The translations under genes and the position numbers were made by a program. Shown here one piece after another: positions 11,901-64,000 of a stretch of DNA of 64,000 bases (the first letter of the stretch is position 1; every line of letters begins with the position of its first letter). This DNA is from Bilabrum cf. latius. Lineage: Eukaryota. The stretch lies in assembly GCA_965178125.1 (NCBI GenBank), contig OZ237761.1:248001-312000 (forward strand), written 5' to 3'. Below the pieces are notes generated by a model. That model was given only the letters and a program-made list of their open reading frames with translations. It was not told the origin of the DNA and searched no databases.

Positions 11901-11943
<43 letters not shown>

Positions 11944-18460: not shown

Positions 18461-18488
18461 ACATCGCGAGGCTTGGCAGAGTCCTGCC

Positions 18489-21656: not shown

Positions 21657-21684
21657 ACATCGCGAGGCTTGGCAGAGTGCTGAT

Positions 21685-25681: not shown

Positions 25682-25789
25682 CAGCGGTGAATTGGAGGTT
25701 TGCAGATCTCGCAAGCGATCTTTTTTCGTCGCTATAGCAAAAGTGTACGCAAGTGGAAGCTTGAAGTCGCAACGAAGCTGGCCAGCTAC

Positions 25790-36800: not shown

Positions 36801-37549
36801 GTACTCGCTTTCACGCGACCATGGCTTGCCAGAGAGATATTTTTCGAGGGACGCGCAAAGACCTTCTAGCTTTTGCTGCGGGAGATAGGCGAAAGGAGCT
36901 GAACTTCAGGAGTTCAACATGATATATTGGCCAATACTACCAGATATGCAACGCACGTGGCAGCTGGTGGCGAGCTACCTCATGTGCGAGTCTGGGGTTT
37001 GTCATCAATATATGGCACCACTCGGTCTTACCGCAACAGGTTTTGAGTAGTGTAGCATATCCTTCATTATCTATCCGAAGCGCCAAAAGCCAATCATGCG
37101 AACAGCAGTCTGCGAAGTGCTCGAACGATGCAGAAGACTGGAGGGACGAACCTGATGATGCGCTCTGGTCTAGAGGGTACCTGATTGAATTCAACCGGTC
37201 TCACGTGTCCGATCTAGATCATGGAGCTAATAACTTGAGTGAGGGCAGTTGCAAGCTTCAGGCTGACGTTGATTCCTGTGATTATCCATTTTGTGGCAGT
37301 CAGGACTGCTGCTGCTATTTCGACGGGCTCTCCCGCCTCACTGTGTACTTGAAGCATTGAAGCGTTCAGAACGGAGTCATGCTAAGGACTAGTGCCAAAT
37401 GGAGGCGCCTCTGTGGCAATTAAATCTCCAGAGTACGTGGGACCGGTCTTCACTGCCCAGTCCAACCTCGGACGATTGTCGATCGTTGAGAGCCCACTGG
37501 TCATGCAGACAAGTGCCGCCAAAATTGCGGCAGAAGCAAGGGTTTGCAT
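30837..37549 (-). CDS. Large secreted protein (~2150 aa with TAG=Q) with one EGF-like domain
   Basis: Eight ORF pieces in one frame from 36875 to TGA 30837 (16 TAGs, no TAA/TGA). Proposed upstream exons 37205-37549 and 37032-37109 with phase-0 GT-AG introns. Signal peptide MQTLASAAILAALVCMTSG. EGF-like CSGHGQC...CECEQGYSGLLCE. Confidence 0.75.
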
Positions 37550-37818: not shown

Positions 37819-40497
37819 TCAACCGCTCTGGAGCAATATCGCCGCGGGAGCCAGAGGAGGCAAATGGACCGCTGCCCAGGCCTGCCCGGTGCTCGAGGTG
37901 CTCGGGAAACACCGCGCACCACCCGCCGCGAAGGGGCCGGGGCTAGAAACGCACGGCCGCTGGCTCATCTGATCGATGGACCCCGCAGCGGGCCATGGAC
38001 CCGTCGAGCCCAGCCACAGGCGGACGACGACAGGCTTCGCACGAAGGTTCGACATCAATGCCACGGTGCTTCCATCCGGCAGCACGGATGACCCGCAGTA
38101 CACCCCGTACGCAGGGCTCGGAACCACCTCACTTGTCACACTGCGATCACTCGTCACACCTTGCAGCACCTCCTCGCAGATGAGGGCGGTGCCGAGCCCC
38201 TTCCCCTCCGCGGACGCGGCCGCCGCTCCGAGCTCAACGGATACATTGGTGCCAGGCTCGGCCATGGCCCTGGCGCCGCCCTGCATGTCAAACTGCCAGT
38301 ACGACACCTGCTGGTTCACCTGCAGCCATCGTAGCTCCGAGTCCGTGCGAGGCGACCCGCGCGCGGTGTACCGCAGCAGAGCAGCCGAGGGCTCCAGCGG
38401 GCTGGAAGCGTTGCCGAGGCACAGGAGACGGTGGGAGGGGCTGCTCTGTACCCACGACTGCAGCGCGGCGAACGCCCTGTCGCCGATGTGGGAGGTACCC
38501 GGGATCACGAGGAGCTGCGTATCACTCGTCACACCCGATGTGCTGTTGACTTCCAGATCGGACTCTGGGATCCACCCCATTGGCCACCCTCTCAGCCCGA
38601 AAAAGATCGACTCCACGGCCATCGCGGTTCGGGAGGTGGACAAAGGGTCTGCGATGAAGCTCGACTCCGAGTACAGGACACGGACTGGCCGGGTCACGCG
38701 CATGGGGTGGCCAAACACGCGCGTGCCCATGGCGGACAGCTCGATTCCCGTCCTCTCGATCGCGTCCAGGGCCCCGGGAAGCGTGGTGATGGACCACGGG
38801 AAGGCACCCGGCGCGGCCACCTGGCTTGGGGGACTCACAGTCTTCCCGCACACGTCGGGGTGCATTGCATTGCGGGCCCAGTACCACGTCTCCGCCCCCG
38901 CCAGCCCCTGCATGGCCAGGAACCAGAGCACCCCCCTCGTGTAAGCCGGCGTGATTTCTCCTCCGGAGCCCCTGTACCTGACCGTGGTGATCCCGTGCCA
39001 CTCGGTGTCCAGCACGGGCTTCGCGGGCGACAGGCTCTTGCTCAGGGTGTAGCCCATTGCGGTGCTGGCCCAGTCGGCGGCCCAGTAGCTCGCGTTCCAG
39101 GCCCACTGCTCCCTGGGCAGGATCAGCCGGGAGCTCGCATCATCCGCGGGTAGTATCCTAGAGTCCATCGCAGACACGTCCATGAGCCGAGTGAGCGCCA
39201 CTCGGTCGATGCCGTCGGCCAGCGGGGCGGCGAACGCGAGCTGATTCTGCAGCTTTAGCATGCACGCGGGTGCAGGGAGCTCTTCTTGGTATGACGAGTG
39301 CACTTGTTCCCTGGATCGAGCCGCGTCATCGGCGGAAATCGCCGCGGTCCGCATGGTCGCAAACCACTTCGTCACCCGCTCGTTGTTGAACCGGGCCCAG
39401 TCCGACCAGCGGGCCGCCACTGCCGGCCTGTTGCTGGGGTCTGTCCCAGGGCCCAGAGCGGGGGGCGGGGTCGGAGGCACCACGGCGGGGATATCTTCGA
39501 AACCGGAATAGCTGGCGTTCCAGGCAGCGTTGAGCGCCTCGATGCTGCCGTCGTACGCATTCGAGAGCCAGCTACGGTACTTGCCGAAGGTGAACGGGGA
39601 GGCGGAGGAGGTGAAGCCTGGCTCGTTGGCAAGGAGGTAAGGGCGGTACATTCTGCTGGCGTTTCGGGCGCCGGCTCTCTCCAGAGGAAGCGTGTGGTTA
39701 AAGGTATACTCCACCCCGAACGCAGCACCGGGGTTGTCGATGTCAAACCCAATAAAGTGCTGCTTCCAACCCGGACCGGTCACGTTGTTGACGCCCAGGT
39801 ATCTGTCTTCGACCCAGCTTGGCAGTGCCTGCGACAGAGCGAAGAACGCCGCCGGGAGGTTCCCCACCATGCCGTGCTCACTCAAAAGCTCGTTGTAGTC
39901 CTCAACGGCATACGGGCTGATATCCGGGCCGTGCGGGAAAAAGCTCTGCGGGGAGGTCCAGAGATCTACCATCACGGTTCTTAGCCCTGCCTCGGTTCCA
40001 TCTGCGCACGACGGGCCCCAGGTGAAGCCTAGCGCCAGGATCGGCGTGCCGTTCGACTGCAGCATGCCTCCTTCCATCACTACGCCCGCATTGGAGCCGT
40101 TGGATGAGGGCACTGGAAGTCTCGATGCAGATCCGTTCAGAACGAGCTTGGCTGATGCAATCGCGTTTTCTAGAGCGGAGAGCACCTCTGCAGTCTCGTT
40201 GACGGGAAGTGAAGCAGCGAGCTGTGCGTCTCTGTCGGGGTCCACATGGTGCGATCCGAACCACGCTGCGTACGCTGCTTGCGATATGTTCTTGTACGTT
40301 GTATCGTGCTCAATAAAATTGCATGCAAGTGTTGCTACTTGATGGCTGGCTGTCTCAAGGCTTGCATCTATTCCTGCGCTTCGCATGGAGTCGATCTAAG
40401 CCTGCAATACCTGCATGTCGGAAGAGACCCTACTCAAGCTGCACCCCAAGCATACTTCTCCACAAAAGAGTATAATTAGTGCGCCAAGTATGTGCAT
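37819..40497 (-). CDS. Secreted beta-galactosidase-like protein (GH42-like, clan GH-A), ~892 aa
   Basis: One TAG (40396) joins signal peptide MHILGALIILFCGEVCLG to the 855-aa ORF. Motifs LANEP (acid/base), YRSWLSNAYDGSIEALNAAW, DWARF, PVLDTEWHG (nucleophile), plus a trimerisation-like region LLVIPG. Confidence 0.75.
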
Positions 40498-40620
40498 TGG
40501 GTCAGATATCTGGAGAAAATGAGAAGAATAGATCAAAAAACTAAATGAAGATGCATGGCACTGCAGTTCACGTGTTTTCCGGAGGTGGAATTCGCTCGCA
40601 TCAGCGGCAGCAGCCAAAGC

Positions 40621-42144
40621 TCAAGAATTCAACCCCTTCCTAGCCCTGTACCTGTTTAAGCTCACCTCAAGCGCCGAGGACACCGCAGAACTCAGCACGA
40701 TGCCGGTGGTATCCGCCACTGACGCCACTCCCAACGAAAACTCCCTCAGGTGCGGCTTGGCCTGCTTCCGGATGAGCGAGAACGCCTTCACGTACAGAGT
40801 TCCGCCCAGCATTCCCACCCACAAGGACACCACCAGCACCGCCCAGCTCGATTTCACCGCATCCGTCATGGACTGAGCCAGGAAGAGGGCGAGGTTGACC
40901 AGCTGAAGGGCAGGCAGCGGCCACAGCTCGTTCCCTGGCATGGGCACGGACTCGCCGAACGTTCTGCTCAAGAATACGCCGCACTGATACGCAAAGTTGC
41001 TCCTGACATAAAACACATGAGAGCTGACCCCATCCCTAGGGAATCCGAGCGTGGAAGCCACGCCGGTGTTCACAGTGTACTCGAGAAAGTAGACCGCTGC
41101 CATCGACGCCATGTGTCTGGATATCGGCATAACTGCACGCAGCTTTTCCCAAAGGTCTGCTTCACCGTGTGAATGCTTGTCACCCTGAGCGGCCCCGATC
41201 GGGACCGGAGCAAACGCTTGCTCCCCGGCAGCTGCAGCCGCGCCCCCTCCCTCGGCCGGGGCAGCCAGCTCCAGGCCAGCGCCAGACGCGGACGAGAAGA
41301 CGGGAGACTACGGGCTCGAATTGCTCTGCTCTAATGCCTCGTCTCCGGTTGCCGAAAGGGGCACGCTATTGGCGCCAACGCGGCCGTCATGGTTGTGCTC
41401 GCCGCTCCTGGGCGCGCTTCCAGTAGGGACCTAGATCTGCGTGGCATCCGTGTCTCCTGGCGGGTCACCATGAGACACGAGAGGCTTCTCTGCGCTATCG
41501 CTACGGCTACTGTGATCCATTCTGCTTCCAGTAGCCGGTTTCTCTTCGGCTGGGTGGTCGTGTGGATCCACAGTCGGCGCCGTCAGGACCAGGTAGACGA
41601 CGCACAGGTACAGGACTGGGAGCGACGAGCCGAGCAACAGCGTGTTTTTCGGGGTCCAAGCTAGAACATCATGAAAGAGCAAGTACCACCCAGCCCCTGC
41701 GATTCCCGCAAACCCAGTACCGCTGGACCACGCCACCACGGAAACGTCCGAGTACACTGCCGTCGCGCTGAGAGCCGTCGCCTCTCCTAAGCCAGCCCCT
41801 GCGGATGCTACCATCACCCCGAGCAAACGTATCCCGACATTTTCAAAGAAACCAACCAGAAAGAAGCTCGCGATGGCAAAGAGACCGCATACAAGAAATC
41901 TAATATGGTACGGGATGCCGCCCGCGAAGGCCGGAGCGGCCAGCTTCACCACGAAAGTAGGGACTATGTCGCAGGCCAATATCACTCCCGCGTATCCCGC
42001 AAGAATCTGCTCCGCCGCACTTAACATCACTACGTACCCAAAGTTGTTCACGAGACCCATCACAAAGAATGCCACAGCATTTCGCCTTTGGACCCATAAT
42101 ACTGCACCCGGGCTGGGCCCGCGCTTTTCCTCAGCAGGCATCAT
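40621..42144 (-). CDS. CLN3: Battenin / CLN3 (BTN1) lysosomal membrane protein, ~507 aa
   Basis: AFFVMGLVNNFGYVVMLSAA, GLGEATAL, WSSGTGFAG, VYFLEYTVNTG, YQCGVFLSRT, GMLGGTLYV, REFSLG. The two ORF halves are joined by an open loop with 2 TAGs. Confidence 0.93.
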
Positions 42145-42476
42145 TAAAAAATTGTCAATTGATGTAAAAACTAGCGGCAGTCGTTTCGTGGGTATCAGAG
42201 CAGTGGACCAATCAGTGAGCTCTACTCGTCATTCGATCCTTGCCTGCACCGCTAGCAGCCTTGCTGGCAGCACAAATTGTTCATCTTCCGGTGATCTGTG
42301 TTGGCACTTAACAATTCAATCGCCTGACCTGGCGGTGTTGGGCCACATGCCCGGCGGCGCTGCCTAGGTGAACTTTCAGATGGTGCAAGAGTCCTCCTGT
42401 TTCCTTTGCCAGCCTCGTGAGATGCAGCATCTTTGCTTCGGTCACCGTTCACATGCCATTTTATTTTAGTCCAAAT

Positions 42477-45400
42477 ATGTTTAAGATGTTCTCGCTTGCT
42501 TATCCGGGCCGAGCAGTACGTCTTGGGGCGTTGCTGCCCTTCCTTGGCATCCGAGATATTTGTGCGCTCTCCCAGACTTGCACGGCTGTGCGAACAAGCT
42601 TGCGGGCACAGAGGAATCGGGTAGGCAAGGCAATCGAGCGTGATCTGTAGAGTAGAGCAGAGCACACATCCGGGAGCGAGGAAGTGGGGCTACTGTGGTC
42701 GATGGCGTATCGGCTCGTGCACCATGGAGGGCTGCTAACGCTTGCACAGACACAAGGGTGGAAGCAGCTTCGTGGTATATCGTGCAAAGGTATATCGGTT
42801 AATAGAACCGAGGAGTAGATACAGACCGAACAAGCTACGCATGCGTCGCAAGATTCGAGCAGTAGTGGAGCACTGGCAGCTGCCTACGATGTGGGCAACT
42901 GCAGCGCGACTCGACAGAGCCAACTGCCCTGCACGGAACCAAGCATCAGCCCGAGCGGTACCAACGACAGTAGCTAGGATGATCGATCAGCCAGTGTGGT
43001 AAGAATCTCACCCTCACACAAATCACACAAAGATCACCGGATGCAACAACGAGGAGGGGTAGATCGACTCGCACGGGAAACTGCCATCCACGACGACATT
43101 CCTCGCTTCAGAGTTGAGGAGAGCATCGCTGCCCCCACCTGTATGCAAGCTCTCTCTCGAGACCCGGATAGCGGCGGGGTCATTCGGGCCATCGTGGAGT
43201 GGGAAGAAGCCGGAAGGGTGCTGTGTGGCGGACAGGAGCGGTGTGCTGCTGAAGACGTGTAGGCCTGTGACGACTTTGAAAACGCAGTCGCAACAGCTCA
43301 GCTGGTGGTAGCTCTGTCTGGCAGCTTGAGGCATGTGCCGGGAAGGCTCGACGCGATTCGGAACGCTTTTAATGGCACATACCTCGTCGACCTATCCGAG
43401 GGTCACGCGCGTGAGGATGGCCCAGTGGGGATGGTCTCCGATGGATCCGATGGCGATCGAGCTGACGTGCCATGGACCGAGTCCGGGGTCGTTAAAGCGC
43501 CACTATCTGACTACCACGAATCTGGTGGTAGAATCAAGCTAAGAACACCCCACGATCTGGAGAAGTGCCCTCCCTCGCGAGCCGATGCCGATGCCGACGT
43601 GATGGAGCTAGACACGGCTAGAGGCAAACTCAGGTGCATGGTCGCCCCGTTGTCTCTGGGCGAGGCATATCCCCTGCCATTCAATGACGGCATCGAAGCG
43701 ATTATTGAACGGATTCATCAAGGCTAGGAAAGCGCTGCACGCGGTATGCGCGAGACAGTCTAGCCGGAGGTGCCGGCTGCCTGCACGTCGCGGATCCTCA
43801 CAGTGCGACGGACCATAGAGGAGAAACGCGAGGAAATCGACTCTGCTGCTGCCGGCATGATTGATCCAGATGCGACCCATTTCGCTGTTTGGAAAGCGCC
43901 AGGCCTGCAGCGAATTTAGGAGCTGCCTGATTGCTTGCCAGGTGCTTGTTCTGCAGGAGAGGCGACGGGCATTCGTTCGGGGGGCGCTGCAAGTGCTGGA
44001 ATCGTGGCAGCCCGAATTCCACTTCAGAACTCAGGTTTTGAGCCTTCTACGGGAACTGATGCAGTCTAGTGGATGCACCTGACGGCAACACTGGACGTTT
44101 CCAGCGCGGGTGTAGTACTCGGCCGAGTTGAGTAGCTCCACCAGGCTGCCACACAACGGCTCGGACTCATTGACGGCTACTGGTGCTACTGCAAGAGCTG
44201 GTCCTGCTGCAGGATTTTCTGCACGTCCTACCCGTGGCGGGCGTGCCTCGTCGGGTGGCTGGATTGCTGCCACGTGACAGTTCCTCTTGTCGTCTGGTTT
44301 GCGGTGGCGCAGGCACTGATCTGGGGTGCAATCCCACTAGCTTGCACCAAAGCGATCGTGCAGGATCGGTTGTTCAACGGCACATTTGCAGGCTACTCCG
44401 TGGAATTTGCAAACACGGCTGACGCGAACTTGTCAGCCCAAATTTTAGACGATGCCGTAGCCAAATGCAGCTCCACCAGCATACTTGAGTGGGGCAGTGA
44501 CGAATCAAGACCCTCTGACGCTCTGGACGCGCTGGATTCATTTCGGCTCCGGGCATGGTTGCAGTATTTGTGGATTGTAGTTTGTGCTTGTGCAGTTCCC
44601 GTCGTGTGTTTGGTGTGTTTTAAGCTGCTGTGGGGCTGCCGAAATGAAGCAGATGCCGTAAAGCTGACCCCGTGGATGCTGCTGCTCTGGAGCACCTGGG
44701 ATGCAGATACTATAACCGATGATGTATCATTCACGATCCGGCCTTGGTCCTGGTCGTCTGCTAACTGGCTGGAGGAACCGGGCTATGCGGAGACTACGCC
44801 CAGGTTGCCTCGTGAACTGGAGAAACACGAACTTGAGCTGATGGACAAGATGGGCAGTTCAGTAGCTGCTGAGCTTGCGTCTGTGCTAAGCCTTAGCGTC
44901 GTCCTTGCCTGCCTTTCGCTTCTACCCGAGGAGTCTATTGTATCAGTCCACACTTTCGAGGCGTTTGGTATCGCATCTGGAGTTGCGCTGATTGTTGCAC
45001 TTGTAGCCCTGCAGTGCCTGGATGTATTTCGCTTGGTTGTGCGCGGCAGCGATGGGAAGGTGCTGCCTCGTGATGGCGTGTGCTGCCCGCCTATGCAGCA
45101 GCTCGCAATCGGATGCTGCAGGCTGTCAGTGGCACGATTCGACCTTGCCTTGCTTGGTGGGCTATTGCTAGTTTGTGCCGCGCTATTGGCAGCCTCTCCC
45201 GGTGGAAGCATCTCAAGCAATGCACAGACTGGAATAGTCTGTGGATACGCAGGTATTTGGGTCTTCAGCACGTTCATGCGATTGGTAGTTTGCAATCGCA
45301 TGGCATGTCGCTGTGGTCCTGTCGAGCTGTACCGCAGGGTGTTTCTGTGCCAGGAGCCCGCGAGAGGACTCACTGATCTCCAAGCCGCCACGTGTACCAG

Positions 45401-46844
45401 CGAGCTGCAAGCGGCAGAACTAGTGCACGCATGTGTGGCTATTGTGCTGCTCATCGCATGCGCCGCCGTGGTCGGGCGCGACGTTCGCTTGCTGCACCCT
45501 TGGGTGCTTCTGTGGATAGTAGTGCAGGCACTTGGCAAGTCGTGGGCATTTGCGACGCACGATATAGTCTGCGGACGTTCCTGCAGTCCCACCAAGCATC
45601 GTGCGTGCTGGGACAGCGCGACGACCTGCTTCTGGGCGCGGTACCCGTGCTGTGGTGCGCTTGCTCCTTAGCAGAAACACACATATGCGGGTAAAATCCA
45701 AGAGCTTTCTTTCTCCATGCAGCTGATTGACTCCCTATGGGGCTCAGTGCACGGGGAAAACGACGGAAGCGATGCCCAAGGTCGTGCGTTCAAGACGTTC
45801 GAGCCTGTTGTCTCACCCAACTCGCCCGTGCTGTTGCTTCGATCGCCCTGTTTCTGTGATGAATTCATTGCTAGGTTGAACTTGGTGAGGCAAGCCGTGA
45901 ATCGGGGGTTCGTTGCTACTGACGCGAACTGCTTCCCTCGCTAGAATATTCCGGAACAAGCCCAATACCGCAAACGGAACAAGCATTGGCAGCCGCAGCT
46001 TGCGTCGTGTGCACTGAAACAGTTGCAAGTCGCCAGTGACCTCCTTCTCCTGCACGAGGCTCGCAACCGGAAGGTATCCGGAGATCGCCTGCTCAGGCTG
46101 CACCTGAGGCTGGAGGCCTTGTACGGTGCAACACTCCCCATACATGCAAGTGCAAACGCATACGATAATTGCCGTACGCAGACAGAAACAGGCGCATCCC
46201 CCGGGCCTGTTATGATTGGACGGTCCCATTTCCTTGATAGCTTTGAGATCGATCCTGCCCAGGTGCGTGCCTTGAGTGCAGCTGCGTTGGGTGCGGCCAT
46301 GTACGTTCTAGGCGGCCCGAGGTACCTGGTTAGGGCGTTCGTTGGCTTATTGTACTCTCGGCAGCACTCATCACAATGCGCCCAAGAAGGAGAGTTTGCA
46401 TCGCACTTTGCCTCTGGTTCAGCTGCTGCGCCTGCATCTGCTTCTGGCGCAGCCGCTTTGCGTGGTGCACCTGGGGTGTATGATAGGCTTGCCGTAGCCA
46501 ATGCACTCGATGCGGGCCGGCGGGCGTGGCAATGCATGATAGGAACGCTTGATGAGGCGCAAATTACTACCAAGAGCGATCCGGATCCTAGCTCTGATTG
46601 CAACAGTCACGGTGGTATTCGGGATTCTCCCTTGTGGATGGGCTCGCAGCGAAGGAGCCGTCTTGGGTGGACCTCGCCGTGTGCTTCTATCGTAGTCGAT
46701 TTAGGAGGTGGTAAGACGGTGTACAGCTCTCCCGCTTCGTGTCTCATGTCCCCGGATGATGCACACAGGGTGTTTGAGATCCCTGCGTGGGCAGTTCAGA
46801 GTGACGGCGATTCGGAAGACAGCGGTTTCGGCAATAGTGTCTGA
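42477..46844 (+). CDS. F-box-like N-terminus plus multipass membrane region, paralogue 1 (~1455 aa with TAG=Q)
   Basis: Six ORF pieces in one frame, 11 TAGs, TGA at 46842. LLPFLGIRDICALSQTCTAVR resembles an F-box core. Several hydrophobic helices at 44274-45560. Start uncertain (42453/42477/42486). Confidence 0.7.
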
Positions 46845-47413: not shown

Positions 47414-50400
47414 GCTTGTTTTGTGTGTGTCTGGTCTGGACCTCTGATCGCAGACGCTGTCAGGCACATCCTTCCACACCTGGGCCTCCAAGAGATCTGC
47501 GCCCTGTCACAGACCTGCGCTGCCATGCGAGCCAGCATACATGCGCAATAGCATCTAGTGGGCAAGGTCATTGAGCGAGACTTGCAAGTAAAGGCACATC
47601 AACGGTCAGGGAGCGAAGAGGTGGGCCGACTGTAGTCTAAAGCGTTTCGGCTCGTGCACCACGGAGGGCTGCTAACACTTGCTACGAGGCTGTTGTCTGA
47701 TGGAATGGAGCGTTCCTGTGTTACAGAGTACGGACGGCGGAATGCAGCTTCCGAAAGCACCAGGACACTGCGAGATTCTCAAGGTGCCAGCTTGGGCGGC
47801 GCGGCAGCAGCAGCCTGCCTGGATAACCCCGCAGCTGCAATATCTGCAGACATGGTGCTCACCACATCCTAGGCCTCTTGTTCCGACCAGCAGGTTCATG
47901 CTTGTATTCGTTCAGGCACGTCTACTATTTCGAACGGACCTCCGGGCAACTCACAGTCGTGTTTAGGTGTCCAGAGAGTGCGAACAGCAAGTTTGCCGCG
48001 GTCCAAAGACGTGTTGCAGAACCGGGCAGCGCGCAGAGGCACCCATCGCCCTTGCCCGCATCAAAACATCGCACCGCTTAGCTGCCTTAAGGCTCTCTCT
48101 CGAGACCCGGATAGCGGCGGGCTCATCCGGGCCATCGTCGAGTGGGAAGAAGCCGGAAGGGTGCTGTGTGGCGGAAAGGAGCGATGTGCTGCTGAAGACG
48201 TGTAGGCCTGTGGCGACTTTGAAAACGCAGTTGCAACTGCTCAGCTGGTGGTAGCTCTGTCTGGTAGTACCCAGATGTAGCAGGTGCCGGGCGGGCTCGA
48301 CGCAATTCGCAATGCGTTCATCAATCGCACACCACATGAGTGTCTGAAGGTGAGGGTTGGCTCGTGCAGAGTTGCCATCGATTCTCAATTGCGAACCGCT
48401 CCCATATGGACGACACCAGGCATATACAGAGCGGGTTTCAGACTAACTAGCGAAGTAAATGAACCTTAGAGGGCGATTGTGTCGGCCAGAAGACAAGAGG
48501 TTAGGGGTAGAGGCTAGCAAGCCCTTGCTGCTGGCGCAGAACCTGCGCCGCAGGCACCACTTGCGACCCTGCAAGGGGCAGTTCCACCCACTGGTGTGGA
48601 TGCAGCCAGGTGGATACACACGTCCGCACGCAGTTCTTCGAATATAGCATCAGCTCTGGAGAGAATCCAGAGCCTGCATGTCCGTGCCACTATACTACTC
48701 GCACAAGTCGACGGCTACTGGTGCTACTGCAAGAGCTGGTCCTGCTGCAGGATTTTCTGCACGTCCTACCCGTGGCGGGCGTGCCTAATAGGACTATCGG
48801 ACCTATGTCACGTCATCGTTCCTCTCGTTGCATCGATTGGGATAGCAATTCGACTCGCTAGTTATACTGTCCCGCTCGCTTGCACCAAAGTAATGATGCA
48901 GGATTGGCTACTCAATGGCACGCAAGTGGATACTGGTAGGTTTGAAAATCTTGCAGACGCAAATTCGATGGGAACTATATACCAAGCTCTTGGCGATGCC
49001 TCCGCCAGCTGTGGCTCAACTGCAATACTGGGATGGGGTGCTCATAATTCAAGTCAAGTCGACGCTCGAGCAGTAAAAGCTTTGGACACCTTAAGCACGT
49101 TTCGACTGGGTGCATAGCTGTAGATGGCGTGGGTCGTTATATGTTTAATTACTATTCCCATTGCATGCTCTGCGGCTTTCTAGCTGTTGTAGCGCTGTCG
49201 GACTGGAGCAGACACAGTTCGCCTAACACCATGCATGCCGCTGCTGAGGAGTTCCAGGGGTACATACACGCACGCTCTGTCTCAACAACATGACCTGTGG
49301 CCATGGACGCGCCGATGGAGGGAACAGCGAGCACACGACCCAGACGCCTACTCACGCTCTGCTCGGAGGATCAGCATATCTATCACGGAGTTGAACCACG
49401 TGGGGAGGATGGGAATTGCGCCAGCGGCCAGACTTGCCTCAACTGCGTGCCTCGCTCTGGTGCTTGCTTTCCTTGCATGCCTACCAGAGTAGACCTTATT
49501 GTCTGTGCACACATTGCGGTTATTTGCTACTGCGTCTGGTGTTCTATTGACTATGTCGCTTGCTGCGTTGCAAATCCTGAATGTCGTGCGTTTGGCAGGT
49601 GTGACGCGGGAAATCAACGGAGAGGCCTTTGCACGTGGCCGTTGCTGCCCGCCAATGAAACAGCTTGCACTGGGATGTTGCATGCTGTCGGAGACTCACC
49701 TCGCCTTTGGTCTGCTTGGCGGGTTATTGCTGGTGTGTGGTATTCTCCTATCCAGCTCAGCTGATGGATCCATCTCTCTCAGGTTGCAAGCATTAGTCTT
49801 CGGCATGTATCCTGGCATCTGGGTGATCAACACTTTTATTCGATTTGTTGGGATTGGTTTGTTGAGGTGGTCAATCCGCCCTGTTAGCTGGTATAGCAGG
49901 GTGTGCCTATGTGAGCGACTATCCGCGCAGTTGACAAGTTTGGAAGACGTTGCGTGCTCACGCTACGCCACCACTGGGGGATTTGCACACGCTGCTGGAA
50001 CCGTGGCGGCTCTGGCAGTAATTGCTGCTAAGATCGGTAGAGAAGCCCGCCTACTTCATCCTATCGTTCTGATGTGCATCGTGCTGCAGAGCTTTGGACT
50101 GGCCCTGGTTGTTCAGTGGTCACCCCCTGACCATATATCCAGCCGTTTCTTCAGAATCATCAAAACCATCACGGAGTCGGGGCGTATGTGTTGCAATGAA
50201 CCAGCCGCTTATCACCCACTCTTGTACGGCAGCGTGGTCAAGGAGCTCTCAAAAGCTATGAATGAGATAGAGTCTCTATGGGTTGATGTGCACCCTTCCG
50301 CTTGCGAAGCAGACTCGAGGAAAAGTCATGGGAACACCCACATGAGAGTGTTTGCTCCCGTTCTCTCAGCTGCAGCCACCGTACGTAATATGGAATCGCC

Positions 50401-51256
50401 GTGGCTATGTGATGAGTTCATGGCTAGGTTGAACTTGGTGAGGCAGGCGGTAAATCGAGGATACGTTGCGGTCGATGCAAACTTGGCCCCCCCACTAGCG
50501 CGCTCAATGCCCAAGCGCATTAGGGAGCCGGGGCACAATCACATCACCAAGACCAGACAACAAGTAACACACCAGTTGCAAGTCGCCAGTGACCTCCTTC
50601 TCCTGCACGAGGCTCGCAACCGGAAGGTATCCGGAGATCGCCTGCTCAGGCTGCACCTGAGGCTGGAGGCACTGCGCAGTGCATGCTTGCGGCTTCAGGC
50701 CCAGTAGAAAGCGATTGCTGGAAATCAGTAGTCGTGCATTAGCAGTACTGCAGCGGAACCTGTGCTGATTGGGCGGCCCGATTTCCTCGGCAGCTTCGAG
50801 ATCGATCCTGCCCAGGTGCGTGCCTTGAGTGCAGCTGCGTTGGGTGCGGCAATGTATGTTCTAGGCGGCCCGCATAAGCTCGTTCGGTCATTAAAGTGCC
50901 TATTACATGCCCATCAATAGCCTGCAAGGTGTGGAAATGCAGACTAGTTTGCATCAGGTTATCACTTCAAGTCAGCAGCTCCGCCTGTGTCGACTGCTTG
51001 CGCATCGAGTAGTGCAGCTGCTGCGCAATCCTCACCAGGCCTCGGAGAGTGTGACGCGGGCGCTCTAGCCACTGCGCTCGATGTGGGGCTGCAGGCGTGG
51101 ACACGCGTGATTGTTGCGCTGCGTGCCCGGCAGAATACGAGTCACGGGGGGCTGCAACGTGGTATATAGTGCGAATTGCGAGCCGATACCAGTATGGGGT
51201 GGACGTTGCCCTGCGCTTCTATCCTTGTCGATTTAAGAGATGGTAAGGCAGCGTGA
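47414..51256 (+). CDS. F-box-like multipass membrane protein, paralogue 2 (5' end unresolved)
   Basis: Frame open from after TAA 47411 to TGA 51254 with 17 TAGs and no frameshift. HILPHLGLQEICALSQTCAAMR; colinear with paralogue 1. Confidence 0.65.
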
Positions 51257-52152: not shown

Positions 52153-55100
52153 TCAATGCAATCCCGAGTCCACGTCCATCTGGATGGACGCCTGCCTGGG
52201 CCTGCTGCTGTCTGACCCTGCGCCTAGGTAGTCGGACGCAGTTTCATCCGCCACTCTAGTTGGCCTCCTTGACATCGATGTCTCCGGGCCTTCTGGATGT
52301 CTAATACCAAAGGTGGGGCCACCCCGTGAAATGTCGATGTTCGTGGCGCGTTCAAGTGGCATGTTGTACCCCACTCTAGTTTCAACTCCGATGTCTCCAG
52401 TGCGGGCCCGTGTGCTGCTCTCGTATGGCTGGCGTCGCTCCATCTGCGGCGCCAGACCCTGATCTCTCATTTCATGCCGAGACAACAGCCGTATTCGCGC
52501 TAGCGGCGATGATGCTCGTACTGAGGCGTCGCTTTGGCGAGAGCTGCGCGAGAACCCTCTACTTGCAGGAGTCCATGAGGGCAATCGGGAACCGACTGCG
52601 TATGCATCGGTGTCAGACGTCATTGGCTGCGCCCACGTGACGTCTGCCCGATACTTTGCTGCGCTGTCATCTCGATTCAAGTGCCTGGTGTCCTGACTCT
52701 GCTCAACATTGCGACCATCACGCGCATCCACGTGGTCCAGGTAGGCCTGTGAAGAGCCCCCAAGCCACCACAGTGGACCCTCCGAGCAGTCGCCACCACT
52801 GCCACTACCGGTACCACTGCCTTCACCGAACTCCTTTGGCATCGCAGCACCTGCCATAGCTAGCTGTTGGGGACTTGATGAAGTGCGATACCCAAGTGCT
52901 GCGTCTGGAATCGAGGTTCGAGCAGAGCTATGCCGTGAGCTGGGTCGCCCCACATGCATACGCTGCAACCGCCCGCCGTGCCAGCCAAGTGCACGGAGCT
53001 GGGCTGGAGCACCCGCACTGGGAGATATGGCCACCTGGTGGGCTGCTTGAACGCTACTCCTGCGCATCCGCACGTCCTGCTGGGCGGAGCCGTCTGGGAA
53101 TTTACCTTGCCAAGAAGAGATCGATGCAGGCGGATCTGGCGGGCTGGTGTCGACTCGCAGCCCTGCACCCCCGCCAAGCACAGCTAGTGCATTCACTGTC
53201 TAGCGCGCCGGTCCATCCGAAGACACCGAACTTGAAGTAGCCGCTGGCGGGGGCATGGACACTAGGCCGCGATCCCTAACCTCAGGATTACCCAAGGCAG
53301 TCTCCATCGCGGTAGGCGCTCCGGGAAGAAGAGTTGACGAGATTGGCCTGCGATGGCCACCATAACTGATACTGCTTGCCGCCAAGAGACCGCGATCCCC
53401 TGCATGCGGATGCGATATAATTGGTGGCGGGATGATTCCGGGGGATTGCATGATTCGGCCACCGCGCGATCGGGATTGTGCCCTGGGTGAGTACTCTGCG
53501 GTTTTCCCAAGGGATGGCGTCGGCTGCTAGAGGTGCTACTACGTTGGGTGCTGCAATTGCTGCCGCAGTTGCAGCTGAACCGATGCTTCTCCTCTGCGTT
53601 GGAGTTTGGCAGACACCTAGCTCCACGTCTACGCATAGCTTTCCGTGGATGCGCGTCGGTCCTTCCTCCGATCCGGCAGTGGCACCTCACGGCTGCCCCA
53701 CGCCCCGCTCGAATAGCGCCGCCGCGCTGATCCGTGCGAGGCGTTGCGATGAGTTAAATGCCTTGTTGAACTACCTCGCGATAGTCGAGAGGCGACTGGG
53801 ACCGACGGGACGGCCACCGGCGAGGAGGATGGATACCCAGCATCGCTCGAGCTCATGGCAGAATCGGCTCTGGAGCCACGTTCCCCAAATATAGCAGACC
53901 CAGCTCGACTTCCGCTCGATATTGAGCTGTCCAAAGCACGAATGGCCTCCCCTAAACCGGAAGAGGCCTCCGACTGCATCGACTCCACCACCCGCCCGCG
54001 CAGCGCCCCAACCGTTCGAAGGGCAGCGTCCGGCGCATGCGACCCACGGGGGTGTACGGCGTCCTGCCCGCCGCCAAGGGCGTCTGAGGCCCGAGATCCC
54101 TTTGCTGAAGCTTGGGCAAATTCTCTCCATTGGTGTGGTGGCCCTGATCGCTGGCCTAACGATCGCACCTGCTGATAAAGAACGTCATGAAACGTCAACC
54201 GACTATTGCGGCCCATAGAAGCGGATGCACTCGACCCTTGCACGTCTGTAGCAAGACGAACCCGAGAGTCTGGCTCCAGAGCTCCGGTTTCAAGTGGTGC
54301 TGCCGCGATAGAGTCCCTGTGGGATCCAGACGAGTCCATTTCAATCGGAGATTCGGGGGCCAAGGCTGGCTGGCTCACGGCTGCCGTCTTACTTTTAACG
54401 CGCGAACGCACTGATGAGACCATGTCTTGCTATGCAGCAAGACAGACATCATGCCTGCTGTCTCTTGGAATGCGTACGCTGAGTCCAGACTCGCCCGTGC
54501 CGCCTCTGCGTGCTAGCAGCGGATGTATCGCGCCTCCAAAACCAGCACCGACAGTTTGGCTTGCCTGTACCTGCTGGGGCCCAACCTCGAGGTCGTCGTC
54601 ATCTACCACAACTGCACTACCCTATGGAATAGAGCCACTGTTTCGCCTGGCAACTCTTTGCAAAGACGACTTCGGAGGCATGGTGCCCCTGGGAATCCTC
54701 CTCTGCATGGTCGCCTGCCGGCTCCACGCGTAGTCCACCAGCTGGCTGGAGGAAGAGCCCTCCAACAGTTGGGACGATGACGACCCGGAGGGTGATCCTG
54801 CGTGGGACTGAGCAAGCACGAGCGGAGCTCCAAATGGATGCGGGTTCGAGGGCCCAGACGAGCCCGATTCGTCCGTTGTGACCCTGGAACTGCGACCGCT
54901 TCCGAGCCTGGCTTGTTGCTGCTGCATTACAACCTTCCCTCCGTGTCGTTGCCACCTCTACTGAAAACGAGCCGTTCGGGCGCGCGGAGGAGGCGCATGC
55001 TACCCCTGCTTGCCTCTCGAGTCCTGCACCGCGTCGTCCGCGAGTGCCTGCCGCTGGCGAGACAGTTGCGTGTGGCTAGGCATGGATGCTTTTCTTGCTC

Positions 55101-55957
55101 GAGTCCCAGGCGATCTCTTCAAAGCGGCAGTCGGCAACCTTTGCACACGTGTTCCTGTCCGTTGCCGCAGCAAATTCTCGGGCATCGTTATAGACGTCAT
55201 GATTGCAGCAGCCTAGGCTGCCGCAACAGCGGCCGCTGCGGCTGGATCGCATGCTTCGTCTCCGCTGCATTCGCCCGAATATTCCCCGTCCCGTCGACCA
55301 CGTTTTTTATCTGGCTTGCCGTCGCTAGCTCGAGATTCCCGCTTAATGCTTCGTTTCCTGCCCCTTGCAGTTTGCTTGCCGGGTGCCTTCGCTTGGATTC
55401 TGGAACGGTCTTCTACGAGCACGCCATCAACAATCTTTCCACGTCTTGAAAGACTGTAAAATCTGTTCTTCACGGCGTTTTCTCCCCGGTTTTCAAAGTG
55501 AGATGCGATCTTAACCCATTGGTTACCGAGCGTGCCGCGCAGCTAGATTATTCTCCTGTCCTCTTCAGCGGTCCATTTGGTCTTCTTGATGCTTGGATCA
55601 ACAATATTTCGCCATCTGCGGTGAGAATCATTGAATTGCCTCGAAGACTGGGATCAACGGGCATGCACTCGAAGTGTGGCATTTCAGGCAAGATCACGTT
55701 GTCGTGCTCACCTCTCTCTGCATTGCTTCGCAGATCTGCCTGTGTTTAGCTCCAACGATATCGTGTGCCAATTGCCATGCTATCCATACTTTAACTGGAG
55801 CTCATGCAATCTCTCGTCTTCCTGCGCAGGGATGGGCCAGGGATTGCACCTGTCGAGCTACGAGACTTGTGCGAGCGGTCTCACCGGCTGCCCACCAAAG
55901 GGGCTGTTATCTTACATCAATTGTCCATTTCTTCCTAACCCCTGGTTTGGAGGGCAT
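52153..55957 (-). CDS. R2R3-type Myb transcription factor with long low-complexity C-terminus (~1204 aa)
   Basis: complement(join(52153..55615,55712..55821,55916..55957)). KWTIDEDERL...YG*HGNWHTISLELNTGRSAKQCRERWRNIVDPSIKKTKWTAEEDRRII*LRGTLGNQWVKIASHFENRGENAVKNRFYS. 13 TAGs, TGA stop. The Myb domain is absent from the supplied ORF track. Confidence 0.9.
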
Positions 55958-57818: not shown

Positions 57819-58051
57819 TGCAGCCAAGGGCTGCCCCCACCATCATGGCCCATGGATTTGGTGGAAGGGCGCTAGTAAGGTCTGTTTCTTCAACATGCGT
57901 CATCATGATTGCGTACTCATTGGAATTGAATCACAAAGTGGTACAAACCTACCAACGGCGCGAACGCCGGAACCAACTCGGTTGAGAATAAAGAAGCACA
58001 CTTTTGTGGGTCCTTTGCATTCAATTAGCGGCGGCGCGAGCGCGACGCAAC

Positions 58052-61000
58052 TTATTGGCCGTGAAGGGCTGCCCGGCCGGTGCCCGCATCACGAAGCAAG
58101 CCGCCCTCGGCAGCCGCCGCGATCCATGCTCGTCGAGCAGCTGCTCCCGGTCCTCTCCTCGACCCAACCGACCGAATCACCGCAGTGCTATCACCAGCAC
58201 CGTGACCACCCATCCCGCCCGGAGCAGCCTCGTTACGCGCCTCTTCCCATTCCCCCCACGCTTGCAATGCGTGGCCAGGGGCGCGTCCCTGCAGCCACCC
58301 ACCCATAGGCGCGGAACGGAAGCCAGCCCACGCGACACCCGAGCCACGATCTCCATCATCCTCATCTCCGTCCCTGCCGCTGCCTTCACCAGCAGCAGTG
58401 CTAATGCTATCTCCACTCATCACACCTCCGTCCAACACCTGGACAGACACAGCCGATGCGGCATCCGCAGTCACGAGGCATGCGGCACCGAGCCCGAGCA
58501 AGCCGGCGGGCTCGGCCCCCAGGCTCGCCCGCTCGCCTCGGGCAAGTGCTCCAGAAACGGTCGCAACTCCGAGAGCACCGTCACCGAACGTTCGCACGAG
58601 TTCGCTGATAAGCACCCGTGCAGCAGGTGCCCTGGCATCCCTGGGCCCGGCGGCAGCAGAGCCAGCGAGCGGCGGCTCGGGCACGCCGGTTGCAAGCTCC
58701 GATCCGATCCACCGAAGCACACTCTCCAGCGACTCGCTAAATGATCGCGCCTCCTCCCGGGCGCCCCCATCGGTGGCCGAACCGGTTGCAACCGCCGCCG
58801 CGCGACCCAGCGCCACGGCCCACAGCGCCAGGCCAGCGCCGATCGACCCTGCTCGCGCACCAGCCGCAGCTCCACGCCTCCCAATCACAGAAAGAGGCCT
58901 CTCTGCGCCGGCATACGGGATACCGCCCTCTCCCGGGACAACGCCGCCATCGCTACCAGCAAGTCCAGATCCTGCACCGGTTCCCGAGCCAGCGGCAGGC
59001 GCACCCAGCCCAGAGGCCGCCTGCAGTGCTGCTAGATCGCTGGCCATATCGCTGCCAGTTTGGCCACCTTCGGCCGAGATTCCTTGCGCATCAGCATCGC
59101 CGACCCTTCGTCTCTTGGCCTCCCTCCCGGCATCGTCACCGGCAGAGTCCCTGGACCCTCCGTCGCCTTGTGCGGCGCTTGCATCTCCGCCAGTCATCGC
59201 GCCGTTGGCATCGCCGGTCGCGACCGCACCAGCTTGCGATGCACCCTCACCCTCCTCGCCGCCCCTCTGCCGCTTCTTGCCGAGGAGCCCGGGGGCACCG
59301 GAGGGCTGACCCGCTGCACCTGCATGCGATGCACCTGGCTGCTCGTCACCGCCAACCATGGGCACCCCCATGGCCCCTGCCGAGCCCTTTGTCTTCAGGT
59401 TGGGCTCATAGGGAGCAGTCAATGCCGCGTCCCTGGCCTGATCCACACCACCAGCTGCAGCTGCCTGCGTGGCAGCACGAGCCGCTTCTGCCGCAGCCTC
59501 TGACTCTGCCGCGAGCGCCACGGCCATGGCACGCAGCACCGCTGCCAGGCACGGGACATCGAGGGCCCACCACGGCAAACCGCCCGCGCGGGCACCGGGT
59601 GCATCGTCTGCCCACGCCAAAAGGCTGCCCACACCCAGCCAAGCGCTCGTCACGCTGCAGGCAGGAGCGGAGAGCGTGTTGATAGCTCGGTTCAGTCGAG
59701 AGGCCGCCTGAGCAGCTGCCGCGGGCGACAACCCCCTGAGGCGGGGCGCCCCCAATGCGGGGACAAGACCCCCCGAGCTCACCCCGCATTCCCCTAGGGG
59801 TCGCGCCAGCAGCCGGTCCACAGCCCCCCCACCCGGCCTCGCCTCGACAACACCAGCGGCACCAGAGGGCGTCGCAACGCCGCAGCACAGCCCCACCAGG
59901 GCGGCCTCACAGGGAACAACGTCCATCCAACCGGCCCGAGGAACACCCTATGCGTCGCTGCTGGCCCACTGCCACCAAGCCTCGAATGCCTGCGCGGGCG
60001 TGCTGCCTGGCACAGGCAGAGCCACCTCCTCTGCACGGACCCGTGGTGGCGGCGGCCATACCCCGCGCGGAGGCTCGTCCCGCTGTGGTGGCGGCGGCGC
60101 CGCGACTCCCTGCGGAACCATCTGCGCCACGTCTCCCAGCCAGCCTCCCCCACTCGATTTACCCTCACCATCTCCATCACCGCCACTGGCCGCAGCAGCT
60201 GTGACAGCTCCCTGTGTCACCGCTTGGGGAGCAACAGCCAGCATGCAGCGGAGAAGGGAGGCCTTCATGGCCTCGCGGTCGGATCCAACCACCTGTTGTG
60301 CCGCTGTTCCCTCGGTAGCGTAATACGCAACGGCCCACTCACCTCCTGCCAGAGCCGCGGACACGCAAGCAGCAGCGAGCGACTTTCCGTCGGAAGCCGC
60401 CCCGCCTGTTGACCCCCCTTGTTCCCTGGCCGCTTTGACCAGCTCGTGCAGGGCAGCCACGTCGCCCTCTCCCTGTCCTAGTGCCAAGCCGAAGCCTTCG
60501 GCTGCCTGCAGCAGCGGCACCCAGCCCTCTGCCGGAGTGGCAGGCGGGTCACCACCGGTGCCTGACTCAGACAGCTCCGGCCCGATCCCGCACGCCGATG
60601 ACCCGGCCTCGTCGCTCAACAGAATGGCCGCGCCGACCGCCGCCGACGCGACCGCGGGGCGCGGCGCCGGTAGCGGAACCTGAATGAGCACACCGTCGTC
60701 GCCCCCATCGGCACAGCCCCCTGAGGGCACGACCGCCGAGGCCCAGCCGCGGCTCTTCTTCAGTACGCCGGTGGATTCTGCGACCACTTTCTGGAAGGGT
60801 CCGGCGGGGGCCGGCGGGGACCCGCCGCTTGCGGAACTGCCCGCCTGGCGCCGCGCAGCAGTAAGTTCCGCAGCGGTGGTGGCGTCTTCCGCGGCCATGG
60901 CTCCGATCAGTTTGCCCGCCCTGAGGCACGCGCCCGGACCCAGGGGATCGGCCAGCGAGCCCATGGGGCATGCTGCAGGCTGCTGTGGCGAGTCGCCATA

Positions 61001-63178
61001 CTTCAGGGCGACACGGCAGTGCAGTGCAAGCGCCCGAGTGGCTCCTTTGGACACGGCAGCAACGGCCTCCGCACCGGCCTTGCCCTCCGGTTCCGCTTGC
61101 GCGGCGCCCAGCTGTGCCTCGGCCTCGGCCTCGCGAAGATGGAAGGCAAGCTGCTGCACAAAGGAGGGAGCCACGCGCCCGCCTGCAGGAGAACCCGCTG
61201 CGATCGCCAGGCGCGTCACCGCTGCGGCCGCCGCCGCGGCGTCAGGACCAGCAGGTGCCTTAGTCGCAAGTGGCAGCAGCGATCCGTGTTCCCTGGACCA
61301 CTGCAGCGCGCAAAGAGGCGAGGAGCACGGCGAATCGAACCGAAGTAAACCCGCTCCTGCAGATCCCGGCGCGCCGGTACTAGCCTCGATGGTGGCAACT
61401 TCCGGTTTATGCGCCCCCCCGGCCCTGTTCCCTACGGTTGCATCCAGCCCCAGCATGCAGCGCATTGCCGCACCGGCGTGCGGATCGGCTGCCACGAGCC
61501 AGTGGCACGCGTCGTCCACCACGAGCCACGCCAGCCCGGCACCGATCGGCTGAGCCTTCTTCGGAGCACTTGATGAAGATGAAGACGACGACGACGATGC
61601 AGCCGATGAGCGCCTGCCCCATCCCGCTGCAGCGGCAGCAGCAGCGGCAGCCACGGGCTTCAGCACGCCTGCTTCGACTGGCCTACCAGCTCGCGGTCCG
61701 CCGAAGTCAACGGACGCCGGTGCAGGGGCAATCAGCAGCCGGCTTACCCAGCCCACGGGAGAGTGCACCGCCGCGCACTCGTCACCATGGATTCGTTCTG
61801 AGGTTACAACCGGTCTGAGGGGCGCGCCCCACGGGATGGGCGACTACCTAAGACGCAATGAACGCCTCTCCTCCTTCCCCCGAGCATCATCATAGCCTTT
61901 GGTGAGGGACTGCCAGAGGCAGCCGCTGGGGGCAGCGGAGGATTCGTGCAGCAGCGCAGAGGCAGCTGCGGTGGCCGCTGGGCCCCAACTACCCAAAGTG
62001 TGCGCGGCGTCGTCGATCGCCGCAGAACCAGAGTCGTCATCGACTGCAACGATCGCTACCACGCCCTCGTCGGCTTCTGCGCCAGCGGAACCAACCGGCG
62101 CCGCGCTAGCCGATTCCACCATGGCCCAAACAGTTTCCAATCCTCCCACTTGATCAGCGGCATCGCCAGCAACAGCGCACGCAGCAGCAAGTGCCGCCGC
62201 ACCAGCAACGGCTGACCCAGTGACGATCGACGGCGAATCTACGGGTTCGTCACCGCTACCATTCTTCAAACCACACGCTACTTCCAACTGGGATCGCACA
62301 TCGTTGGACCAAACGGCACCAGCTGCAGCCAGCCACGGCAATAACCGGAACAGCGCCGCCACAGCCGAGACGCTGCCCCGCCGCAGCGCCGCCTTGAGTG
62401 CCTCTCGCACGTGGGCGACAGCGACTGCCCTCACGTCCACGGCAAACGAGTCCGCTGCGGATCCGCCGGTGGTGGCACCTTCCGCTCGAACTTGATCTTC
62501 ATGCTCGCTCAGCATACGCCCCCAGCCCGCGACTATTGCGGCGATCGCAGGGGAGGCCCAAGGCCTCTCGAGGGCCATGCGGAGCAGCCACCTGCAAGCC
62601 GTGTGCGCTCTGCTCTTTGCGATCGCGCGGAATGCGACGGAACTGGAACTATCCGATTCTTCTGATGCGTCTTGCCCGTTTGATACGGCCTGGGCTTTGT
62701 CAGCATCTGCATCCGAGGCGACCATCGGGACAGCAGCGCTGGCGCCTGGCGGCTTCCGATGCACAGCCGCCCAAATGTCATCCGACGCCTCCTTCGCGCT
62801 GGTGCTTGAAGAAAGCGCGGACATTATTTTGCCTCGGACATGCCTAGCAAACCTAGATGCGTCCCTAGCTCCGCCGCGGCTTAGGTACTCCTGCACGGCT
62901 GCCCGCTCTTCCGTCGTAAGGCTAGCACATGCTCCCAAAGCTAAGGCTGCCGAGGGCTCTCTGGCCTAAATGTCTTCCTCTGTTGCTGCAACAAACTGCG
63001 ACTATAGTCTTGATGCAACAGCAGACGCTCCTCCTCCGCTGCGGCCCCCACCGCTGAACCGCCGTCCCCTGCCTCGTCCACGCCCTCTGCCGCGGCCTCG
63101 CCCCCTCCCGCGGTACCCTCCCCCGCGGCGTGGCTTGAACGTACGTCTATGGTCTCCGTCGTGCTGGTGCGCCTGCAT
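58052..63178 (-). CDS. Large Ala/Gly-rich helical protein with N-terminal RG repeats; possible divergent cap-binding protein CBP80 (MIF4G-like), ~1708 aa
   Basis: Three ORFs in one frame joined by 4 TAGs, ATG 63178, ends TAA 58052. Segments WLLRMALERPWASPAIAAIV, VREALKAALRRGSVSAVAALFRLLPWL, WLVVDDACHWL and RLNRAINTLS...AWL occur in an order reminiscent of NCBP1; the identification is weak. Confidence 0.6.
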
Positions 63179-63299: not shown

Positions 63300-64000
63300 A
63301 TGAGCGAATCTCCTAGTCCTGCGCGTTCGATTGATAGTGATGCATCACGTCCTGATTCAGCCACTGGCTCGGGCACTGCTGGGGCTGGTGCGGACGACGG
63401 GCGTATTCTAGTGTTTTGTAGAGTTCGTCCGACAAGAAGTCCGTCTGGGTGGATGAAGTTTGTGCCACAGCGTGGTAGGGTCAATTTTGATGTACCAGAT
63501 TCCTATCTTGAGAGCCATGGGGACGCAGCAATCGCAGCCGGCGGTTTGCAAGCCCGAGACAAGCACCACGAATTTGCTTTCAACGGGTTGATAGGGATGG
63601 GGGCAAAATAGAACGAAGTATTCGACGCAGTTGCCAAGCCAGCAGTAGATAGGTTAGTGCATGCGTAAATATCTCCGAAACTTTGGATGCAACACGTTTT
63701 TCTTCTCAATTCCAGTCTGTCACGGCCAGTCCATCTGAGTATCTGATCGGTCTGCCTGCCACGCAGCGCACTGTCTGGATATAATTCAACTATATTCGCC
63801 TATGGTCAGACCGGAAGCGGGAAAACGTTCACCATTACCGGAGGCCCGGACAGGTACGAAGACAGGGGCATTATCCCGCGCACGCTATCGTACATTTTCA
63901 AGCGGGCGCGCGCCATGGAAGGCGAGGACGAGGCTGCCCCTCCCACACCTGCCTCCGGGGACGGCGACCCGGACGGAGGTACCGAGGGGGAGGGTACAGA
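63300..64000 (+). CDS. KIF6: Kinesin-9 family motor, KIF6-like (3' end outside window)
   Basis: [31 protein letters not shown], intron 63653-63766 (GTTAGT..CGCAG), then [41 protein letters not shown]. Confidence 0.92.

Follow-up and report, generated by a model that had tools for sequence, protein, structure and literature searches.

In the nuclear code of Iotanema spirale (Fornicata), UAG encodes glutamine (Gln), and UAA and UGA serve as stops; this organism possesses a tRNA-Gln(CUA) and an eRF1 whose GTS motif is altered (T32G), and its counted stops were 104 UAA and 15 UGA (PMC5304391). UAG is also the only reassigned stop codon, again to Gln, in the phyllopharyngean ciliates Hartmannula sinica and Trochilia petrani and in Protocruzia tuzeti, and in the phyllopharyngean ciliates UAA is the stop of 86.9-98.3% of genes and UGA is the rarest (PMC11687900). 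Two further groups, the rhizarian exLh, for which 56 UAA and 15 UGA stops were counted (PMC5304391), and the TARA phyllopharyngeans, read UAG as leucine, and Scotinosphaera reads it as serine. According to the accessible portions of these two papers, to which all statements drawn from them here are limited, the published UAG-only lineages with stop usage (Iotanema, exLh and the phyllopharyngean ciliates) keep UAA as the main terminator. Here we describe a stretch of 64,000 nucleotides (nt) of Bilabrum cf. latius (assembly GCA_965178125.1, contig OZ237761.1, positions 248,001 to 312,000), called the window below, in which UAG has very probably changed from a stop to a Gln codon with UAA and UGA kept as terminators, as in NCBI table 15. 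A single gene of the window ends in TAA, at 58052-58054 on the minus strand, and is called the TAA-ended gene.

The window resembles Iotanema in the change of UAG alone to Gln with UAA and UGA kept, and the same mechanism would be predicted here. It differs in that Iotanema uses mainly UAA stops, whereas the window has 21 TGA ends against one TAA and a guanine-plus-cytosine (GC) content of 59%, and in that its fucokinase groups with the stramenopile Cafeteria, in a single-gene tree that holds no fornicate sequence. Hartmannula, Trochilia and Protocruzia, whose origins are independent of other lineages, are alike in making wide use of UAG for Gln without a reassignment of UAA. In the phyllopharyngean ciliates, however, stop usage is the reverse of that in the window, which has a GC content of 59% and whose genes are long and ordinary, on a contig no shorter than 64 kb. 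The exLh, TARA and Scotinosphaera codes share the uncoupling of UAG from UAA but differ in the amino acid, the three conserved columns of the window being Gln. In the lineages using NCBI table 6 (many ciliates, hexamitid diplomonads, ulvophytes, Streblomastix and Amoeboaphelidium) UAG has likewise gone from stop to Gln, but UAA is also sense and UGA is the sole stop, whereas in the window UAA is kept out of the frames and ends a gene. The crAss-like and Lak phages with code 15 (TAG as Gln) have the same codon table but depend on bacterial RF1 and RF2, whereas the window, with its spliceosomal introns and its genes for CLN3, Mog1, Myb and kinesin, is nuclear DNA of a eukaryote.

Both strands of the window were analyzed, and 22 stop-to-stop frames with 16,703 codons in total were modelled. 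Ten of these frames are copies of two repeated genes, A and B, and the non-redundant set consists of 14 frames. TAG was found in frame 118 times (0.7% of codons), in 19 of the 22 frames, and TAA not once; the ten longest frames, nine ended by TGA and one by TAA, held 84 of the TAG codons. The initial annotation had counted about 90 in-frame TAG and no TAA, a number that falls between these two totals, and it had described every complete gene except the TAA-ended one as ending in TGA. Tabulation of the terminal codons within the window gave the same picture, with TGA in 21 frames, TAA in one and TAG in none.

When TAG was read as sense, the longest frame increased from 859 to 2,023 codons, and the number of residues in frames of at least 500 codons increased from 4,904 to 14,953. 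Reading TAA as sense instead left the latter number almost unchanged, at only 4,949. The two off-frames of the same genes contained 152 TAA, 275 TAG and 583 TGA, and the density of TAG in frame (118) matched that out of frame (275 in two frames). The comparison of in-frame and off-frame counts indicated that TAA and TGA are kept out of the reading frame and that TAG is not. Pfam domains and homologue alignments carried on past TAG codons, and in the fucokinase gene the domains flank TAG codons on both sides. Four close copies of gene B differed from each other at codon positions 3, 1 and 2 in the ratio 29:13:6, and 20 of their 38 varying codons were synonymous, which indicated that these copies evolve as coding sequence. 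We concluded that UAG is translated inside genes. The share of TAG among Gln codons was 17-26% in genes with low GC content at third codon positions (GC3), namely the membrane-protein paralogues and the MORN-repeat gene, and 0-9% in high-GC3 genes, namely the glycosidase-like, fucokinase and 933-codon genes. This pattern fits TAG codons arising by mutation under weak constraint or codon bias.

The amino acid was assigned from conserved positions. Three strongly conserved columns holding TAG were available, and all three were Gln columns. Fucokinase TAG codons were placed at conserved Gln columns at 9842-9844 and 13577-13579; the column in 'SQRLPxQSVCGKAW' has Gln in 18 of 27 homologue rows, and that in LAKNLLQRVLRQW in 17 of 27. 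The TAG of the kinesin gene (63609-63611) aligned with the Gln of KIFC1 (5wdh) in GSGQDEVFEEIA (E=0.0026). Three further observations lend weaker support. Near TAG codons, the frequency of Gln was 0.052, the highest among 61 codons compared (CAG 0.051, CAA 0.048, overall 0.037), while the frequency of tryptophan (Trp) was 0.0098 against 0.0176 overall. The base after TAG was distributed as the base after CAG (p=0.69), which argues against a read-through context. In the alignment with a related organism described below, one TAG of the relative was opposite a CAG of the window. Judged from these alignments, UAG most probably stands for Gln wherever it can be assigned.

The TAA-ended gene was compared with its relatives. 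Five public fragments matched the C-terminal 1,190 residues of its protein, in which no Pfam family was matched, and orthologue fragments showed identities of 96%, 62% and 50%. The C-terminus of the fragment with 50% identity (P0047) falls on the same residue as that of the window protein. A near-identical cluster-mate of P0047, P0050, belongs to an organism that carries four metagenome contigs (L001-L004), and these contigs contain the orthologue of the TAA-ended gene and its Myb neighbour in the gene order of the window. The alignments of window and relative extended over 762 residues at 55% identity and 396 residues at 50%, and the longer one, with L004, spans five TAG codons of L004 and one of the window. 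The Myb TAG at 55543-55545 is a TAG also in the L002 orthologue, and in the relative's Myb repeat two extra TAG codons stand beside this common one. Frames of 825, 423 and 643 codons in the relative contained 5, 1 and 10 TAG codons, respectively, that is, 16 in two orthologous genes, with neither TAA nor TGA. Because the orthologous genes of the relative also contain in-frame TAG, the code is common to at least two species.

The relative also located the end of the gene. Its orthologue in L001-L003 ends with '...LLGQ' followed by TGA TGA TGA (1272-1280 in L001), and the window protein ends with '...LHGQ' followed by TAA (TTA on the plus strand), so that the TAA stands exactly at the place of the triple TGA. 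If TAA were used relative to TAG as CAA is relative to CAG (191:439), about 51 in-frame TAA would be expected, and none was observed in the 16,703 codons. As the frames were delimited by TAA and TGA, this zero is partly circular; with TGA as the only stop, however, the large frames stayed separate, and the one sizeable change was an upstream extension of the TAA-ended frame by 247 codons, which lies outside the transcript-like contig described next. With TAG on conserved Gln columns, these results bear out the initial annotation, which had taken UAG as sense and UAA as a stop.

Assembled contigs gave a further view of this end. Contigs of runs X5, X6 and X7, from two studies, stop at 57996, 58002 and 58009, 43-56 nt past the TAA, and the contig of the DNA run X1 continues beyond 57996-58009; as a sign of a transcript end, such agreement between contigs is rated weak. 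The kinesin intron was joined across in X5 and X6 and kept in X1. Because the intron-less joint is absent from X1 and the contigs both begin and end at gene borders, we infer that the contigs of X5-X7 are transcripts. Read-through of the TAA would leave no TGA inside these transcript-like contigs. We concluded that the TAA at 58052-58054 is a genuine terminator. Direct repeats of 639 nt and 354 nt (78-91% alike) lie between this gene and the Myb gene at 56186-57830, and about 166 nt separate the end of their last copy from the contig stops.

UGA is the other terminator, and is not a sense codon. In the non-redundant set, 13 frames ended in TGA and one in TAA, and the fucokinase TGA was located about 20 residues beyond the C-termini of homologues. 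On both strands of the window together, TGA occurred 1588 times, TAG 1052 times and TAA 472 times. Given the ratio of 1588:472 for TGA and TAA, the probability of at most one TAA in 14 stops is 0.14. The predominance of UGA, described in the initial annotation as almost the whole of termination, fits the GC-rich base composition and therefore needs no special explanation.

A mechanism may be proposed by analogy. After reassignment of UAG to Gln with UAA and UGA kept as stops, a dedicated tRNA-Gln(CUA), one base away from tRNA-Gln(CUG), would read UAG and would be unable to pair with UAA. Recognition of the third-position G by eRF1 would be lost or weakened, with UAA and UGA still recognized, and eRF1 would no longer compete at UAG. 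The tRNA and eRF1 steps are predicted because they are established in other UAG-only lineages (PMC5304391, PMC11687900). The greater use of UGA than UAA would follow from the GC-rich composition. A scan for RNA genes detected no tRNA or other known RNA gene in the 64-kb window.

Several observations weigh against this explanation. TAA ends only one gene. TAG was at the end of none of the 14 non-redundant genes, a number in which a minority use could be missed. The RNA-like runs are not recorded as RNA, and X5 was guessed to be 'probably DNA'. The amino-acid assignment hangs on only three conserved columns, and the remaining TAG codons in fucokinase, CLN3 and the orthologue pairs are in variable columns, opposite A, H, G, T, P and E. 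Finally, in paralogue pairs (42372-46844 with 47414-51256, and the gene B copies) TAG was opposite TGG, the Trp codon, seven times and opposite CAG or CAA only twice, which is not what synonymous exchange between TAG and CAG predicts. Alternatives were weighed as follows.

A context-dependent code of the Condylostoma or Blastocrithidia type, in which UAG would mean Gln inside genes and stop near some 3ʹ ends, is the best surviving alternative and is still improbable. Very short untranslated regions (UTRs) are a trait of such organisms, and those of the TAA-ended gene, as given by the contig ends, are very short: about 50 nt (43-56 nt) on the 3ʹ side and about 16 nt (63179-63194) on the 5ʹ side. 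A minority of UAG stops could also escape notice among 14 non-redundant genes. However, the TAG nearest to any frame end was 29 codons before the stop, and the last 28 codons of every frame were free of TAG. The stops of the fucokinase gene (TGA) and of the TAA-ended gene (TAA) fall at conserved C-termini, and TAG and CAG do not differ in the context that follows them. In this small sample, no frame closed with TAG, and no TAA or TGA occurred within one.

Slightly less probable is that UAG encodes a residue other than Gln, or several residues, for example Trp in addition, through another suppressor tRNA. The seven paralogue columns with TGG against two with CAG or CAA speak for it, and two of only six second-position changes among the four close gene B copies were TGG/TAG. 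On the other hand, Gln occupied three of three conserved columns and Trp none, and the neighbourhoods of TAG were rich in Gln and poor in Trp. Trp was found in only 4 of 25 paired TAG columns at 47% identity, and more would be expected if TAG were Trp; Trp is usually among the best-conserved residues. One transition turns TGG into TAG, and the exchange behaves as a mild mutational hot spot whichever frame is counted (5 of 136 changes). That this hot spot accounts for all of the TAG/TGG pairs is only mildly supported, and the excess of these pairs between paralogues is unexplained.

The ordinary table 6 code, with both UAA and UAG as Gln and TAA scarce through high GC, would agree with TAA being the rarest of the three trinucleotides and with its being needed as a stop by one gene only. 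We regard it as very improbable, because codons ending in A are not rare (191 CAA against 439 CAG) and some 51 TAA were predicted where none was seen, because TAA is common off-frame in the same genes, because the TAA at 58052-58054 stands at the triple TGA of the orthologue and is followed by a second TAA, and because the contigs end ahead of the next TGA.

An artefact, with the TAG frames being pseudogenes, unspliced introns, assembly errors or RNA-edited, is equally improbable, since, although many TAG-rich frames are orphans without homologues, frames that run for 1,000-2,000 codons without a TGA or TAA are impossible by chance at the stop densities of the window, conserved domains and orthologues span the TAG codons, the related organism has the same pattern, and contigs of four runs from three studies agreed letter for letter with the window, the 5,199-nt X5 contig (57996-63194) containing the four TAG codons of the TAA-ended gene with no gap and no mismatch and both X5 and X6 retaining the kinesin TAG with the intron removed. 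Pyrrolysine-type recoding, in which a special residue is inserted at rare UAG codons of a few particular genes, does not agree with the presence of TAG in 19 of 22 frames, at 0.7% of codons and on Gln columns.

Together with reassignment of UAG alone to Gln, we consider it very probable that the window is nuclear DNA of a compact, GC-rich protist. Long reading frames are crowded on both strands, and recognizable eukaryotic genes include those for fucokinase/GDP-fucose pyrophosphorylase, a MORN-repeat protein, Myb, CLN3, Mog1 and the start of a kinesin. Introns are present but sparse, namely the 114-nt GT..AG intron of the kinesin gene and one implied by an upstream exon of the Myb gene. Coordinates are given in Table 1.

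Table 1. Coordinates of genes, terminators and repeated units in the 64-kb window
Feature	Position	Strand	Remarks
Two copies of the 3-kb unit (genes A and B)	1..6400	+	every copy with in-frame TAG and TGA end
Gene B copies	2137-3006, 5128-5997, 15411-16280, 18489-19358, 21685-22437		
MORN-repeat gene	6476..9454	-	10 in-frame TAG; ends TGA
Fucokinase/GDP-fucose pyrophosphorylase	9728..14038	+	Pfam PF07959 and PF00288, 27 homologues; 5 in-frame TAG; ends TGA
Mog1 gene	14142..14921	-	0 TAG; ends TGA
Three further copies of the 3-kb unit (genes A and B)	15357..26128	-	last copy fused to a longer gene, 23411-26128
Glycosidase-like gene	26760..28781	-	0 TAG; ends TGA
2,022-codon orphan gene	30837..36905	-	16 in-frame TAG; ends TGA
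933-codon secreted-protein-like gene	37819..40620	-	1 TAG; ends TGA
CLN3 gene	40621..42228	-	2 TAG in non-conserved loop; ends TGA
Membrane-protein paralogue 1	42372..46844	+	11 TAG; ends TGA
Membrane-protein paralogue 2	47414..51256	+	17 TAG; ends TGA
Myb gene, main exon	52153..55653	-	Pfam PF00249; 12 in-frame TAG; ends TGA
Next in-frame TGA after the TAA-ended gene	57917..57919	-	45 codons past the TAA; outside transcript-like contigs
3ʹ UTR of the TAA-ended gene	57996..58051	-	second in-frame TAA at 58025-58027, 9 codons past the first
TAA terminator	58052..58054	-	closes the 1,715-codon frame 58052-63199
Coding sequence of the TAA-ended gene	58055..63178	-	lineage-specific Ala/Gly-rich protein; ATG 63176-63178
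In-frame TAG codons of the TAA-ended gene (4)	63002-63004, 62966-62968, 61844-61846, 59948-59950	-	
Kinesin gene, 5ʹ part	63300..64000	+	TAG at 63609-63611; 114-nt GT..AG intron at 63653-63766

A homologue search with the 2,022-codon orphan returned no match, and the same search with membrane-protein paralogue 1 returned none beyond the window. The comparison of CLN3 with solved structures also gave no match. Exact matches to the Mog1 and glycosidase-like proteins were absent from the protein collection, and a protein-atlas comparison of the latter was uninformative on taxonomy. CLN3 and the gene after it are in the same phase and are separated by a lone TGA at 40621-40623. Since the first ATG of the latter, with a signal-peptide-like start, is 41 codons on, the two frames probably belong to separate genes with about 120 nt between them. 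In the fucokinase frame, the N-terminal stretch 'VVVTASN...' of homologues was missing (9704-9830 region), and 250 nt separate this gene from the divergent MORN-repeat gene; its start may lie in an unrecognized exon, or the protein may be truly shorter.

The 3-kb units are arranged as two tandem copies on one strand (1-6400, plus) and three on the other (15357-24656, minus). Four copies are 94-97% alike and the fifth is 77-79% alike, and arrays of a 47-nt repeat are present at the unit borders. Gene B appeared ankyrin-like by eye and matched no family. A 35-nt tandem repeat in four copies (6375-6514) overlaps the 3ʹ end of the MORN-repeat gene, its final codons and TGA included. The 12-nt motif GTGTGACGAGTG occurred 17 times with at most one mismatch, against 0.32 expected, at 8017-8052, 10977-13448, 28385-28396, 38130-38534 and 58414-58425. 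Fifteen of the 17 were on the coding strand, in one frame that gives (G)VTS, without a longer common flank. The motif was frequently paired at a distance of 18-63 nt, in gapped or unconserved stretches of the fucokinase alignment; a mini-insertion that keeps the frame, a signal in the RNA and a peptide motif are all conceivable.

The phylogenetic position of the organism was approached through fucokinase, for which the best named match among the 27 homologues was Cafeteria roenbergensis with 43% identity. In a quick, single-gene tree, the query was placed in a supported clade of 15 rows, which included the Cafeteria group and unnamed sequences but neither Aureococcus nor Heterococcus. A literature search, with most subscription journals outside it, brought up no case of nuclear UAG reassignment among stramenopiles or in any GC-rich, UGA-terminating organism, and the accessible part of the Incisomonas genome paper (PMC12614181) mentions no code change and gave no connection with the window. 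Because the published lineages are mainly UAA-ending and the fucokinase tree places the window near Cafeteria, it is likely that the code arose here apart from the published UAG-only lineages. What we describe appears to be the known UAG-only-to-Gln code in a new, GC-rich and UGA-terminating lineage of at least two species. That it represents an independent, unreported origin of this code in a GC-rich, heterotrophic, stramenopile-like clade of at least two species is a tentative proposal, which we hold at somewhat less than even chances. If true, stramenopiles would gain their first non-standard nuclear code, and UGA instead of UAA would for the first time be the main terminator of a UAG-only lineage.

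Gene callers using the standard code fragment such genes, as illustrated by the public fragments P0045-P0050, and annotation of the genome and of its metagenome relatives needs table 15. Splits between UAG and UAA are few, and they are natural experiments on third-base reading by eRF1 and on the takeover of stop codons by suppressor tRNAs. In a lineage that is GC-rich and UGA-ending, the loss of UAG recognition can be viewed apart from the choice of the main stop codon. Since a GC-rich genome does not drive UAG extinct, such an origin, if true, would argue for capture of UAG by a suppressor tRNA through an ambiguous intermediate, and not for codon loss under AT pressure.

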